DNA from: Pelagomonas calceolata
Taxonomy: Eukaryota
Assembly: GCA_918797485.1 (NCBI GenBank)
Contig: CAKKNE010000002.1
Span: 1,364,001-1,428,000 of the forward strand
Reading direction: 5' to 3'
Length of the DNA: 64,000 nt
This document shows, one piece after another, positions 1,908 through 26,100 of this stretch. Within the stretch, counting starts at the first letter, position 1, and each line of letters starts with the position of its first letter. Below the pieces are notes generated by a model that made no database searches, had not been told where the DNA came from, and worked only from the letters and a program-made list of their open reading frames with translations. The position numbers and the translations under genes were made by a program.

Positions 1908-2364
1908 CGCTGGTCGCTGCTGGAAATCTTGCACGTCGATGGCGTAAGCCGGCGTCTGATGCCAACGAATTGCGCCGTCGCACACGACCGCAGGCCCGGG
2001 CAGCTTTCAAACACCCTGGGAGGCATCTCTGTGGTGCCGGAGCGAGGCCCCGCGCCGGTTTGTTTCGCCATCGTACGTCGGCAAAGAGTCTTCCACGTGT
2101 CCGGGACCGGAGGAATCCGTCGGATGCATTCCAGACACTTCTCGAACCTACTAGCCCTCAGCCCAAGGCAAAACTCGCCAGCTTGCCCTCGCGCTACAGC
2201 GTCGCGGAGCCACCGCCAGACACAAAGCGCAGCTTATCACTGCCAACCGCGCCCGCGCGTGCATTCCTGCCGCAAGCGCGGCGCGATTTGACCTCGCCTA
2301 GCCCACAAACAGCGAGGGCAAGCACTTCGCTGAATAAGCGCAGCGCGCCGGCGCCGCAGCAACC

Positions 2365-3534
2365 ATGCGGATCGGCAAATGTCCGCGAACCGCGTCCAAA
2401 AGCACTCCGCCTTCACACTGTAACTGCGTGGCGCAATGGATAGCGCATCAGACTTCTAATCTGGGGGTTGCGGGTTCGAGTCCCGCCGTGGTTACACCGA
2501 TTGAGACCGACCGATTGGCGCAACGGTAGCGCGTCAGATTCCAGTCCTGAAGGTTACGTGTTCGAATCACGTATCGGTCACGTCTCCAATCGCACACACA
2601 CAACGAACGACCGATTGGCGCAACGGTAGCGCGTCAGATTCCAGTCCTGAAGGTTACGTGTTCGAATCACGTATCGGTCAGTTCCTTGGCGGCCGGAGAG
2701 CGCGCGCGCCCGGACTGAGTTGCCCGCAACTCACGCGTTCGCCCCCTCGCGCAGGCCACTTCTGCTCGAGCCCGATCTACCCCGGCCACGGCATCGCGTT
2801 CGCGCGCAACGACGCCAAAGTGGTACCGCGGCGGCGTCCGCTCCTTTACTTTCAACCGCGTGGCGCAATGGATAGCGCATCAGACTTCTAATCTGGGGGT
2901 TGCGGGTTCGAGTCCCGCCGTGGTTACGACCGATGGAGACCCTTTGACCGATTGGCGCAACGGTAGCGCGTCAGATTCCAGTCCTGAAGGTTACGTGTTC
3001 GAATCACGTATCGGTCAGGCGTCTCCATCGCACACACACTTATGTGAGAGACCGATTGGCGCAACGGCAGCGCGTCAGATTCCAGTCCTGAAGGTTACGT
3101 GTTCGAATCACGTATCGGTCACATCATCACACACGCCGAGGAGCAACGTCTCACGCGTACGTCCCCCGCCGCAGTTCCACTTCTGCCGCTCGAAATGCCA
3201 CAAGAACTTTAATCTGAAGCGCAACCCGCGGAAAGTCCGCTGGACCAAGGCCTTCCGCAAGGTGCGCGGCAAGGAGATGGCCGTGGACCCGACCTTCGAG
3301 CTCGAGAAGCGGCGGAACCGGCCCGTGAAGTACGACCGGGACCTCGTCGGCGCGACGCTGCGCGCCATGGCGCGGGCCCAGGAGGTCCAGGCGAAGCGGG
3401 CCGCGGCGCACCACAAGAACCGCATGGTCAAGCACCGCGAGAACGACGCCGTGCGCGCGCGCGCGAAGATCGCGGAGCACGAGCTCGCGGCGGGCGGCGG
3501 CACCTTCGAGGCCGGGGACCAGCGGTATGTTTAA
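2365..3534 (+). CDS. RLP24: 60S ribosome biogenesis protein RLP24 (L24e family); exons 2365-2380, 2755-2822, 3175-3534
   Basis: Splicing at GT 2381..AG 2754 and GT 2823..AG 3174 gives [57 protein letters not shown]...RNRPVKYDR, the RLP24/RSL24D1 signature, with phases consistent. Confidence 0.93.
2422..2494 (+). tRNA. tRNA-Arg(UCU), in RLP24 intron 1
   Basis: 73-nt cloverleaf: acceptor AACTGCG/CGTGGTT, anticodon loop CT-TCT-AA, T-loop TTCGAGT. Confidence 0.93.
2509..2580 (+). tRNA. tRNA-Trp(CCA), in RLP24 intron 1
   Basis: 72-nt cloverleaf: acceptor GACCGAT/ATCGGTC, anticodon loop TT-CCA-GT, T-loop TTCGAAT. Confidence 0.92.
2609..2680 (+). tRNA. tRNA-Trp(CCA), in RLP24 intron 1
   Basis: Identical to 2509-2580. 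Confidence 0.92.
2854..2926 (+). tRNA. tRNA-Arg(UCU), in RLP24 intron 2
   Basis: Same as 2422-2494 except C4 (acceptor AACCGCG). Confidence 0.93.
2946..3017 (+). tRNA. tRNA-Trp(CCA), in RLP24 intron 2
   Basis: Identical to 2509-2580. Confidence 0.92.
3050..3121 (+). tRNA. tRNA-Trp(CCA), in RLP24 intron 2
   Basis: Same as the other Trp copies with one D-loop change (GGCAG vs GGTAG). Confidence 0.92.
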
Positions 3535-3893
3535 TTTGTTAGTCGTTCATTTTTTGCTTCCCGCGATCGCGGCGACGCCGTCCGCGGCGTCGGGAGCGCG
3601 TCTGCTAGTGTCTTTACTACCGCTAGCTGCACTGGCAAGCCGCAGGACACAGCACAGCCGCGTTGCGCCGTTACTGGCGAGCTACCTCGCTGAGAGATAG
3701 CATTTCTGTCATATCAACGCCGCGCGAGCGCTGCGCTGACGCCGCCGCGCTGGGACTTACATAAACACTTGTGCAAGGCAAGGCAGGCTCGCTGGCACGC
3801 TCTGCAATAGCGCCGCTCGCTGCGAGACGCTCCCAGAATCACTGCGCAATCGCTGCGCTGAAACACCACAAAGAACACACCGCGCAAAGGACG

Positions 3894-4805
3894 ATGATCT
3901 GCGTGCCCGGCGACGACGTCGCGCCGCTCCAGGACGGCCTCATGCGCGGCCACGGCACCTACGCGCACTCTAATCAGTTGGTGAGCTGCGGTGCTGGTAG
4001 GATCGAGCGCGTGAACAAGCTCGCGTCAGTACGGCCCGTGAGAGGGAGGTACACGGGCTCCGTCGGCGATTTGGTCGTCGGCGAGATCGTCGAGGTCGCG
4101 CACCGGAGCTGGAAGGTCGACGTCGGTTCGACGCGGAAGGCCACGCTAGCCATCACCTCCGTGACCCTCCCAGACGACGCGCAACGCGTGAGAACACATG
4201 AAGATACGCTCGCGATGAGGGAATTATTCAAGGAGGGCGACGTCGTCGTCTGCGAGGTCCAGGCCGTGAACGCCGACGGCCAGCTGCATTTGCACATGAA
4301 ATCGAATCGCTACGGTCTGCTCGAGAACGGCTGTGTCGTTCGAGTGAACCAGCACCTCGTGAGGAGGCTGAAGCACCACTTCGTGGAACTGCCGGACATT
4401 AATGTGGAGCTGTGCGTCGGGCACAACGGTAGGGTGTGGGTCCAGCGGGCGATTCCGTCGCAGTGGATCGAGGCGGAGGCGCAGGACGGCGGCGGCGGCG
4501 CGGGCGAGGCCGACGCGCTATTGAGTGCGGAGGCGTGGCGAAGAGTAAGGAAGCGGCACAGCGCCCTGCCCCTCGAAGACAATGAGAGGGAGGCGTGCTG
4601 CCGCGCGCGGAACGCGGTCGCGGTCTTGGGGAGCGGCGGCTGCGTCGTCGACGGCGACTCGATTCTCAAGATCTACCGCGCGTCGCTGGGCGACGCGCCG
4701 TCGAAGATGCTGACGCGGGCCGTGGCTCAGAAACTCGTCGCGGACTTCCTCGGCGAGCGCGCGCCGGAGCCCATGGACGAGGGGGAGGACGCCATGCAGC
4801 TCTGA
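3894..4805 (+). CDS. RRP4: Exosome complex component RRP4
   Basis: MICVPGD...MRGHGTY...RVNKLASVRPVRGRYTGSVGDLVVGEI...GHNGRVW: RRP4 N-terminal, S1 and KH motifs. Confidence 0.9.
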   Translation: MICVPGDDVAPLQDGLMRGHGTYAHSNQLVSCGAGRIERVNKLASVRPVRGRYTGSVGDLVVGEIVEVAHRSWKVDVGSTRKATLAITSVTLPDDAQRVRTHEDTLAMRELFKEGDVVVCEVQAVNADGQLHLHMKSNRYGLLENGCVVRVNQHLVRRLKHHFVELPDINVELCVGHNGRVWVQRAIPSQWIEAEAQDGGGGAGEADALLSAEAWRRVRKRHSALPLEDNEREACCRARNAVAVLGSGGCVVDGDSILKIYRASLGDAPSKMLTRAVAQKLVADFLGERAPEPMDEGEDAMQL

Positions 4806-23197: not shown

Positions 23198-26100
23198 ATG
23201 TCACATCACTGGGTGCTAGTCGTCGTCTGGGTCAAGATCGACAGCAAGTGGGTCCTGATTTATTTTTGGATCTGCCTCTCTCATTGGCATATTTTTGTCG
23301 AGGCCGCCGCGGCAAACGGCGTGAATTTTTTGCCAGTTTCGGCGTTCACCGTCGGCGAGCGCCACGTCTACCCGTTAACCGACAAGGTTACGGGTGTGCG
23401 CGTGCCCGACGCCGTCCGCTGTGAGGCTGCTGGCGGCAAGAAGGCGCCCGCGGTCGTCTTCGGGGGGCGTTGTGATTGGAACCCCGCGGATTTGCTCGAA
23501 GCTCGTCGCAATTTCAATAAGATAATGTGGAAACCTTCCGCCATGGGTTCTTTCTTACTCATGCTGGTCATTTCCTCATTCCCGCAAAATTGTTGGAAGC
23601 GGCGTCTGAATACCTTTTTTTCAACCACTGCGCCATCGATACGAGACGTGCCCACCGCTCCCGGCCGACTGGAGCGTCGCGTCGCCGGCGTGACACTGGC
23701 CACGGCCTCGACGCGCCGGGCGCCCTTCGAAGAGCGCGACGCCATCGACGCGAATTTACTACCATTTTTCACCACGTCGCTCGTTCCTCGCGCAGATGGG
23801 CGGCCTGTCGCCGGCGGCGCGACCCAGTTCGCCGCGACGCACGCCAAGGCCTCGTACTTGGAGCTGGTCCCGGGCTACGGCCGGAGCGGCGAGAAGACAA
23901 TTAATGATGGTGTTCTTCGCCGCGACCTCGCCCAATTCTTAGCAGCTTTAGATGATCAAGACCGCAAGTTGACGCATATTGACGTCATCGACAGCGCTAT
24001 AGAGTATCAGCCAGATCTCTACACGCTGGGCGAGTCCGTTGAGGCAAAGGTCGATTTCGCTGATCATGTTATTAAGTGGAACAGAGACGCCTCGATCGAG
24101 CGTGCGGACGAGGTGAACGCGGGCGCAGTGACGCGCCTGTCGCGGCTCGCCTCCGAGAAGCCCCGAACCATTGTTTTTGCTGCTCCGGTGCTCAAATACG
24201 CCGCAGATATTCATCTCCTACATGCTCTGGGCGGCAAGACGAAGGCAAACGACTTCGCTGTCGTCGACAAGTTGCCTAAAAACGGCAAGCTCGGCCCGGG
24301 CGGCGTCCATCAGGTCGCCGTCAGGACCCGGACCGGGGGTACTGCCTCCGCCCCACAATACACGTACCAGCTGCACACCTATCAAAAGAAGAAGTACTGG
24401 AAGCCCAATACGAGCCCGCCCAAGGCTCTCAGCATTACGTTTGAGTTACTGGATAAATTGCTCAAGAGCGGCCATTTACCGGAAGGTGCGCTACCGGCGT
24501 CCTTCAGAAGTGTAGAATGCCTTCACGCCATCGACGCGACTCGTGTCCATCTCACAATGAAGTGGGTGGTTTATTTTTCGATTTTGAGGCCATCTGGACC
24601 GACACGATGCGTCGTGGGTGCGTTAAGAGTACTCGAAGCGCCGCGGTCGCCGACGTGCGGTGCGTCGATGCGTGGCCCCACGGTTCCGCGGGGTCTCGGA
24701 GGCGCGGTGACGCCCGTGCCCGAGCGACTGGACCTTCGCGACGCGGAGCGACGGCCACGGCCGCGACGGGCCTCGACGCAGCTCGGAGGCGCCGCGCGTC
24801 CGACGTGCGGCGCGGCGATGGCGTGAGGCCACCTCTCCGCGGCGGCGCGAAGTTTCGACGACGCCCGTGCCCGAGCGACTGGACCTTCGCGACGCGGAGC
24901 GACGGCCACGGCCGCGACGGGCCTCGACGCAGCTCGGAGGCGCCGCGCGTCCGACGTGCGGCGCGGCGATGGCGTGAGGCCACCTCTCCGCGGCGGCGCG
25001 AAGTTTCGACGACGCCCGTGCCCGAGCGACTGGACCTTCGCGACGCGGAGCGACGGCCGCGGCCGCGACGGGCCTCGACGCAGCTCGGAGGCGCCGCGCG
25101 TCCGACGTGCGGCGCGGCGATGGCGTGAGGCCACCTCTCCGCGGCGGCGCGAAGTTTCGACGACGCCCGTGCCCGAGCGACTGGACCTTCGCGACGCGGA
25201 GCGACGGCCACGGCCGCGACGGGCCTCGACGCAGCTCGGAGGCGCCGCGCGTCCGACGTGCGGTGCGTCGATGGCGTGGCCCCACGGCTCCGCGGGGTCT
25301 CGGAGGCGCGGTGACGCCCGTGCCCGAGCGACTGGACCTTCGCGACGCGGAGCGACGGCCGCGGCCGCGACGGGCCTCGACGCAGCTCGGAGCCGCCGCG
25401 CGTGCGACGTGCGGTGCGTCGATGGCGTGGCCCCACGGCTCCGCGGGGTCTCGGAGGCGCGGTGACGCCCGTGCCCGAGCGACTGGACCTTCGCGACGCG
25501 GAGCGACGGCCGCGGCCGCGACGGGCCTCGACGCAGCTCGGAGCCGCCGCGCGTGCGACGTGCGGTGCGTCGATGGCGTGGCCCCACGGCTCCGCGGGGT
25601 CTCGGAGGCGCGGTGACGCCCGTGCCCGAGCGACTGGACCTTCGCGACGCGGAGCGACGCCATCGACGCGACGGGTGGTGCCGTGACGTTCTCGATCTAC
25701 ACAGGTACTATTGTAGAAGTCGCCTCTCCGGAGGCGATCGGCCCGGCTATTCTAAATGTTGTGAAAGCGTCGAACGCCGTGCGCAAGGCCTACGGCTTCC
25801 GTAAGCTCATGCCTACGACTCTTGCGCACGAGTACACGCTGAACCGCAACGACACGCGCGACAAGTCTTCTCTTGCAGTCCTGCATCTTCTGGAGTTACC
25901 AGAAATAAATGAATTAGTTCCACTGGGCTATGGTCAATCAGAAGTGAAACACCCCATCTCGTTTAAAGTTGACGATATTTATGTGCCGGCGTCGGTGGTA
26001 CACGTCACGTACCTTATGGCACCTCAATCACACTGCGACGTCCAATGCCTTATCGATTCAACGGTGCCACAACCGCCCCTTTTCGAACATTCTGCCTGTC

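Follow-up and report, generated by a model that had tools for sequence, protein, structure and literature searches.

The 64,000-nucleotide (nt) stretch of the Pelagomonas calceolata genome analysed here (contig CAKKNE010000002.1, positions 1,364,001 to 1,428,000; "the window", whose own numbering is used throughout) carries near its start the gene for the ribosome biogenesis protein RLP24. The gene is split by two introns, and each of them holds three tRNA genes on the strand of the host, in the same order Arg(UCU)-Trp(CCA)-Trp(CCA). The features of the locus, from the 5' untranslated region (UTR) to the end of the mRNA, are the following.

2181..2364 (+), 5' UTR of RLP24, from the pile of molecule ends at 2181
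2365..2380 (+), RLP24 coding exon 1, from the reading frame and junction reads
2381..2754 (+), intron 1, GT-AG, 374 nt, with three tRNAs, from junction reads and a contig of another study
2381..2397 (+), extended GC-rich 5' intron motif, common to other tRNA-bearing introns, from motif comparison
2422..2494 (+), tRNA-Arg(UCU) copy 1, with a G-U pair in the acceptor stem, from ARAGORN and Rfam
2498..2592 (+), predicted spacer stem around the first Trp tRNA (fold z -2.1), with arms homologous to intron 2
2509..2580 (+), tRNA-Trp(CCA), from ARAGORN and Rfam
2609..2680 (+), tRNA-Trp(CCA), from ARAGORN and Rfam
2730..2754 (+), motif resembling a branch point (putative role) and acceptor of intron 1, a repeat common to intron 2
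2755..2822 (+), RLP24 exon 2, 68 nt, from the reading frame and junction reads
2823..3174 (+), intron 2, GT-AG, 352 nt, with three tRNAs, from junction reads
2854..2926 (+), tRNA-Arg(UCU) copy 2, from ARAGORN and Rfam
2931..3030 (+), predicted spacer stem around the third Trp tRNA (fold z -3.7), one arm pair changed on both sides relative to intron 1
2946..3017 (+), tRNA-Trp(CCA), from ARAGORN and Rfam
3050..3121 (+), tRNA-Trp(CCA) with one D-loop difference, from ARAGORN and Rfam
3150..3174 (+), motif resembling a branch point (putative role) and acceptor of intron 2, a repeat common to intron 1
3175..3534 (+), RLP24 coding exon 3 to the stop, from Pfam PF01246 and homologues
3535..3560 (+), short 3' UTR and mRNA end, with the first T6 run at 3550-3555, from reads and sequence

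The three coding exons join into a reading frame of 147 amino acids, which without splicing runs into an early stop. The protein carries the Pfam L24e domain (PF01246, E 2.5e-14) in exon 3, with a match that begins at profile position 29, exactly at the acceptor, and "ribosome biogenesis protein RLP24" is among its best named homologues, the closest being from Pelagophyceae sp. CCMP2097 (78%). The GC content is 63.4%. Both GT-AG introns, proposed in the original prediction from the letters alone, are confirmed by stranded poly(A) reads in four runs of one sample: junction 2380>2755 is crossed by 618, 282, 264 and 148 reads, and junction 2822>3175 by 734, 342, 287 and 141. The first junction is also recovered in contigs of another study (X17), and the second, weakly, in a second other study (X14; a single contig of depth 4.7, with 18 letters on the shorter side of the junction). 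The mRNA has its main 5' end at 2181 (179 of a depth of 468 in run X21, with a pile in all four poly(A) runs) and its 3' ends near 3545; judged by leader depth against junction reads, retention in X21 is about 8% for intron 1 and about 17% for intron 2. A third intron at a GTATGT near 3525 was considered and rejected: it has no junction, transcripts end near 3545-3560, homologues end alike, and the lack of read depth at 3562-3632 argues against it.

The six tRNAs, lying between 2422 and 3121 on the + strand, are called by both ARAGORN and Rfam (RF00005) with scores of 59-68 bits against a gathering score of 29, and the repeated cassette stands as first proposed. Elsewhere in the 64-kb window we find no tRNA above the Rfam threshold. 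The tRNAs fill 217 of the 374 nt of intron 1 and 217 of the 352 nt of intron 2, with spacers of 14 and 28 nt in the first and of 19 and 32 nt in the second. According to the textbook, nuclear tRNAs are products of RNA polymerase III (Pol III) that end at oligo-T. None of the six RLP24 tRNAs has an oligo-T terminator just downstream; the sole run of four or more T (T4) within 2300-3700 is the one at 3550-3555, beyond the RLP24 stop, as had been noticed at the outset. The two introns also align outside the tRNAs, in both spacers and at the 3' ends, and therefore either one is a copy of the other or one has converted the other, which bears out the common origin suspected in the original prediction. 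The spacers flanking the first Trp copy of each intron can pair, and in the predicted fold one pair differs on both sides. At the locus of a wild relative (L118), which covers exon 1 and part of intron 1 only, the Arg-Trp stretch is identical and the 5' UTR has diverged. Automatic gene calls from other assemblies (P0001, P0125, P0137) run through a Trp tRNA before RLP24 exon 3; the cluster representative of P0137 has 85% identity to that exon.

Metagenome contigs scanned with the D-arm pattern of the RLP24 Trp and Arg tRNAs gave at least 118 loci, and all survey counts given here hold among the matches listed. The loci were sorted by tRNA sequence before their context was inspected, into 40 window-type loci (those with acceptor stems as in the window's tRNAs; GC 0.56-0.69), 21 single fungal-like loci, 25 dense mixed clusters and 32 others. 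The last group, with T4 downstream of 25 of its 64 tRNAs, includes a duplicate of L012 (L013) and a cut-off window-type Trp locus that also ends in an acceptor (L096), and it is not used as a control. At least one intron end lies beside the tRNAs on the same strand at 39 of the 40 window-type loci; the exception, L063, starts at a contig edge and appears chimeric. Grouped by eye, these loci amount to about 33 distinct host-intron sites, all of them sense (p ~2e-10 at 50:50). No copy of the window-type tRNAs among the 40 loci looks intergenic or antisense, and none of the loci has tRNAs on both strands, as opposed to 20 of the 25 control clusters. The hosts include an EF3-like ABC protein, cyclophilin, RPL8, tubulin, H2A, ubiquitin, LCAT, DJ-1, DUF3611, TPT and a Thx-type ribosomal protein; translation and ribosome hosts (RLP24, RPL8, the EF3-like and Thx-type proteins) thus stand next to LCAT, DJ-1, DUF3611 and TPT, a tally that has no genome background for comparison. 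When 52 exon pieces are searched separately against Pfam, one family spans the insert in L047 (105>107), L062 (106>107, 59>70), L057 (69>73), L087 (23>25), L089 (LCAT, 92>93), L048 (133>143) and L071 (ubiquitin repeats), and a domain starts or ends at the junction on one side in L012b, L021, L097, L025, L067, L068, L069, L098 and L102; L009, L019, L042, L054, L072 and L117 have a Pfam match on neither side. Two loci, L087 with Trp-Sec in RPL8 and L038 with an Arg-Arg linker, agree with the flanks seen in poly(A) reads and are for this reason assigned to the species of the window; the remaining window-type loci are probably from related species. RLP24 exons 2-3 were not found among 119 metagenome loci. 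Viral contigs contain no RLP24 relatives, and an 18-nt Trp pattern gives one chance phage match in them. RLP24 is one case of a lineage-wide rule that the original prediction had overlooked. Introns are scarce in this lineage, at 0.19-0.45 per gene and 100-210 nt in length (PMC9481584; bioRxiv 2024.10.30.620910), and with density and length so low they would make up a few percent of such a genome.

The flanking signals of a normal tRNA gene, AT-rich upstream DNA and poly(T) tracts, are weaker in algae (review, PMC13578239). A T4 lies within 25 nt downstream of 7 of the 69 unique window-type tRNAs (upstream, of 16 of the 69), compared with 17 of 21 fungal-like controls (p 1.5e-9) and 285 of 301 clustered controls (p 5e-47), and in 28 of the 30 complete introns the next T4 comes only beyond the intron. 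At positions -30..-21 the A+T content is 0.23 against a locus mean of 0.37, with TATA-like runs at 0/34; the fungal-like controls have 0.69 and 6/21. The first tRNA begins a median of 32 nt after the donor, and the last ends a median of 38.5 nt before the acceptor. A strict form of the donor motif is found within 90 nt upstream of 33 of the 41 first-in-intron clusters with enough flank, compared with 43 of 1422 background windows; the eight misses include L019 (motif at -108), L118 (RLP24 intron 1) and three cases supported by protein continuity (L025, L068, L071). In the other direction, 21 of 23 strict motif matches have a tRNA call behind them, in loci that had themselves been selected for tRNA. 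A candidate intron without tRNA in L042 lacks the extended 5' motif. In viral contigs the motif has 77 matches, one of them with a tRNA, which is chance, and in a collection of prokaryote genomes it has none. The shortest spacers between tRNAs measure 1 nt (Trp-Sec; L051, L087) and 2 nt (Arg-Ala; L068), so that co-transcription and endonucleolytic separation are needed there.

The poly(A) reads contain unprocessed tRNAs with 50-90 nt of flank matching L087 and L038, and the comparison with these loci places a second Arg(UCU) gene and further Trp(CCA) copies in the RNA of the same organism. RNA editing or modification at 2446, 2457, 2559/2569 and 3124 was rejected, as the letters that differ in the reads are those of other tRNA genes, including Arg(UCG), a second Arg(UCU) and a Trp variant in the T stem.

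We put at about 65% the probability that the sense intronic tRNAs of this lineage are made by RNA polymerase II (Pol II) as part of the host pre-mRNA and are cut out by RNase P and RNase Z. Pol II would transcribe the array together with its host gene; the spliceosome would free the intron, and the tRNAs would be released mainly from the excised intron, so that the mRNA survives; RNase P and RNase Z would punctuate the array, and CCA would be added after their cuts. The P. calceolata gene table (PMC9481584 supplement) has RNase P subunits, PRORP, RNase Z and Dbr1. That the tRNAs are released from Pol II intron RNA had been suggested in the original prediction for RLP24, and this now has indirect support from the strand bias, the missing terminators, the GC-rich upstream DNA, and the spacers of 1-2 nt at related loci. 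A wider claim, that essentially the whole nuclear tRNA set of Pelagomonas-like algae has left Pol III control and now lies in short, mobile spliceosomal introns whose copies spread, is tentative, and we would hold the odds to be somewhat against it.

Several observations weigh against a Pol II origin. The taxonomy of the window-type loci rests on tRNA identity and GC content, the loci were picked by a Trp/Arg pattern, and "genome-wide" is an extrapolation from them. The contigs of L063, L090 and L053 appear chimeric at the tRNA repeat; assembly chimeras at a 72-nt repeat may mix flanks, and L089 is nonetheless continuous across the insert (LCAT, 92>93). The donor motif was defined after examples had been viewed. 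T runs are present at some loci (L087, L111, L053), and upstream DNA is not AT-rich in the dense control clusters either, which makes the argument from GC-rich upstream DNA weak by itself. Piles of RNase P/Z-like molecule ends at the tRNA borders are absent from the poly(A) reads. The A and B boxes are intact in six of the six RLP24 tRNAs, though tRNA structure demands both boxes anyway, and Pol III subunits, BRF1, La and Maf1 stand in the same P. calceolata gene table (PMC9481584 supplement). Finally, read depth is lower over the 5' leader than after the tRNAs, with 51 vs 87-104 (intron 1) and 155 vs 218-229 (intron 2) in X21, and 24 vs 29-34 and 70 vs 94-100 in X22. This step of about 1.2-2x, at a resolution of 29 nt, does not decide the matter, because cut retained-intron RNA and starts inside the intron both fit it.

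The boxes, the Pol III machinery and the rise in depth behind the leader of both RLP24 introns would also suit Pol III units nested in the introns. Such a unit would start just upstream of the first tRNA, run through the array as a polycistron, and continue across exons as far as some remote T run (at 3550 in RLP24) or stop at an end other than oligo-T; the sense position inside introns would then be an outcome of intron copying, with no need for the host promoter. The shared GC-rich motif, which begins a median of 32 nt before the first tRNA, may be a site for an upstream promoter factor, and nematodes do have nested Pol III tRNAs (PMC4999229). At 28 of the 30 introns, a Pol III unit would have to read through hundreds of nt into the exons. 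It also leaves unexplained why no intergenic- or antisense-looking copy is seen in the 40 loci and why these tRNAs have lost the terminators that 81-95% of control tRNAs retain. We consider nested Pol III units unlikely, if still a serious competitor. The content of the gene table does not separate the two polymerases: TFIIIC terms number zero on chromosomes 1-5 (~14,500 of 16,667 genes, 87%), and this is no evidence of TFIIIC loss, since TFIIIA, SNAPc and Bdp1 terms are likewise zero. The available supplements of PMC13284251 and PMC10366177 are uninformative about TFIIIC loss, with a Brf1 control that is also zero.

The tRNA-bearing introns look mobile. Six introns of 145-151 nt with a single Trp tRNA lie in unrelated genes and have both termini in common, three Arg(UCG)-Leu introns (L012b, L072 and L117, the last with a truncated Leu gene) are homologous at different sites, and two types of contig have Trp-Sec in RPL8, each at its own position. 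Such look-alike introns in unrelated genes suggest copying, and under a Pol II origin the tRNAs would reach new sites by the copying of whole introns. These introns resemble the introners of Aureococcus and Pelagomonas (bioRxiv 10.1101/2022.06.06.494994; PMC9481584), which likewise are similar introns at unrelated sites with GT and GC donors, and whose partly complementary ends recur in some of the tRNA introns; the tRNA introns differ in having no 8-nt duplication, no added codons where Pfam positions can be read, diverged spacers, and a tRNA cargo. The in-register target repeat has a median of 2 nt and a maximum of 5 (n=32), and the duplex between 5' and 3' ends has z < -2 in 15 of 32 introns (-1.5 and +0.1 for the RLP24 introns). 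Membership in the Aureococcus-type introner class is ruled out by the missing target duplication; the tRNA introns behave like introners yet fail that definition. The word tRNA is absent from the main text of the introner preprint (bioRxiv 10.1101/2022.06.06.494994).

The same homologies raise the alternative that a mobile intron family carries the tRNA copies mainly as cargo, or that the copies are structural aids to splicing, with the working supply coming from ordinary genes outside our sample. The six short Trp introns with common termini, the Arg(UCG)-Leu introns with their truncated Leu gene, and the intronic tRNA-like sequences reported to affect splicing in humans (PMC7722341) would all fit. 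An ordinary Trp or Arg gene copy is nevertheless absent among the 40 loci, the tRNAs are near-invariant though their spacers diverge, changes in the T stem are compensatory, and many isotypes are carried, tRNA-Sec included; we regard this alternative as improbable. Weakest is the proposal of the original prediction that RLP24 is a dedicated host coupling Trp and Arg tRNA supply to biogenesis of the 60S subunit, which we drop as scarcely credible: although RLP24 is a 60S biogenesis factor, RPL8 and the EF3-like gene are also hosts, and the cassette is kept in relatives (the Arg-Trp identity of L118 and the gene calls P0001, P0125 and P0137 that run on through a Trp tRNA), introns of many unrelated genes, among them LCAT, DJ-1, tubulin, cyclophilin, ubiquitin and TPT, hold tRNAs of these types as well. 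The organism also transcribes a second Arg(UCU) and Trp(CCA) copies beyond those of RLP24, and RLP24 itself has no AGA codon and one TGG.

Intron-encoded small nucleolar RNAs (snoRNAs) are stable sense-strand RNAs of spliced Pol II introns, without a terminator of their own and often in housekeeping hosts. The algal tRNAs are like them in occupying spliced sense introns, in having no terminator of their own and in using several introns of one host. They differ in the cargo, which is tRNA with promoter boxes of its own inside the gene, in arrays that reach about six, and in the release, which would be by RNase P/Z and not by the exonucleolytic trimming of snoRNAs; no snoRNA or other Rfam family reaches threshold in the 15 loci tested. 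In insects and crustaceans, RNase P RNA, ancestrally a Pol III transcript, now lies in a Pol II intron across the lineage (PMC6797745). There it is one gene, trimmed by Xrn2 and the exosome, whereas the alga has many tRNA isotypes at dozens of sites, with a presumed Pol II origin. The tRNA-Sec of Trypanosoma brucei is made by Pol II in a protein-gene transcript (PMC2943599), and is the sole tested exception we found to the Pol III rule; its authors state that all other trypanosome tRNAs use Pol III as far as they can tell, and speculate that intronic tRNAs elsewhere may be Pol II products. Unlike the algal arrays, this tRNA-Sec is a single special case whose B box is deficient and which lies in a polycistron instead of an intron. 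In Caenorhabditis, 44% of the tRNA genes are intronic, which is the chance share, and 56% of these are sense; the pairing with hosts is conserved, host promoters have effects, and excision from pre-mRNA is called only theoretically possible (PMC4999229). The alga differs in that ~33 of 33 sites are sense, the genome is intron-poor and terminators are mostly missing; instead of a chance intronic share in both orientations, 39 of the 40 loci adjoin an intron end in the sense orientation. Natural excision of tRNAs from a pre-mRNA intron is raised as an open possibility in both papers (PMC4999229, PMC2943599). An engineered precedent is inPTG, in which arrays of tRNA and guide RNA in a Pol II intron are cut by the plant's own RNase P/Z and splicing is not blocked (PMC6912757); the difference is that this system is synthetic and its tRNA serves as a cutting signal only. 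A literature search whose coverage leaves subscription journals largely outside found no report of lineage-wide intron-hosted tRNAs, and the word tRNA is absent from the main text of the two pelagophyte genome papers (PMC9481584, bioRxiv 2024.10.30.620910).

Besides the standard cloverleaf genes, the arrays include several unusual tRNA forms. A lone 3' half of tRNA-Trp occurs inside the arrays of nine loci: L012 (the b intron), L038, L063, L079, L090, L109, L110, L111 and L113. These halves have compensatory changes in the T stem, and the leader before them is complementary to the anticodon loop of Trp. In L090, which may be chimeric, a 5' half of tRNA-Trp follows downstream; its trailer pairs with leaders of this kind, and best of all with the one in L012. 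Co-folds of the halves from several loci rebuild a cloverleaf, which makes them candidates for a permuted or split tRNA-Trp with other tRNAs nested between its halves. Another form is a tRNA-Leu with an insertion in the D loop and a tRNA-Ser(UGA) with an insertion in the T arm (L019, L038, L062, L063, L072, L090, L111, L113), non-canonical positions as described for Cyanidioschyzon, which ARAGORN misses or mislabels. Intronic tRNA-Sec lies 1 nt behind tRNA-Trp in RPL8 (L051 1589-1749; L087) and ahead of Trp in polyubiquitin (L071). A conserved stretch of about 70 nt that starts a tRNA-bearing intron in L019 (~2305-2375) and L090 (~950-1031) has no Rfam match and is possibly another small RNA. 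Contigs of another lineage, at about 50% GC, hold dense islands in which as many as 28 distinct tRNA genes are spread over both strands in a conserved order, almost all of them with an oligo-T terminator (L005, L006, L015-L017, L037, L049, L052, L065 and L080; L011, L020 and L064; L041 and L070; L016 and L074). In viral contigs of 29-30% GC (L197-L200), the acceptor, D and anticodon arms of a tRNA-Trp match the algal variant of L071, a possible host link. Within the window, a candidate tRNA-free intron at ~23640-23795 (+) contains a short palindromic repeat that is also found inside the tRNA intron of L021, and a repeat in four copies with 151-nt spacing lies at 24789-25300 (+). Directly behind RLP24, the gene for the exosome subunit RRP4 (PF21266) occupies 3633-4805 (+), with transcription from ~3645. 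The protein clusters of P0001 and P0002 have false RLP24 N-termini from reading through an intronic Trp tRNA.

A practical effect of this arrangement is that gene callers read through intronic tRNAs and mis-call the host proteins. If the Pol II origin is true, tRNA output would follow the transcription and splicing of host genes in place of a single Pol III programme. The retention of certain introns in an intron-poor genome would then be explained, and introns could be gained in a new way, through copies that are kept because of the tRNA they carry. Were it to hold for the whole set, the mode of tRNA expression would be categorically new: every tRNA would be a by-product of mRNA splicing, TFIIIC might be dispensable, and these algae would be the first eukaryotes whose tRNA genes are, as a rule, the cargo of Pol II introns. 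P. calceolata is among the most abundant eukaryotes of the ocean, and it would allow the natural excision of tRNAs from introns to be tested directly.

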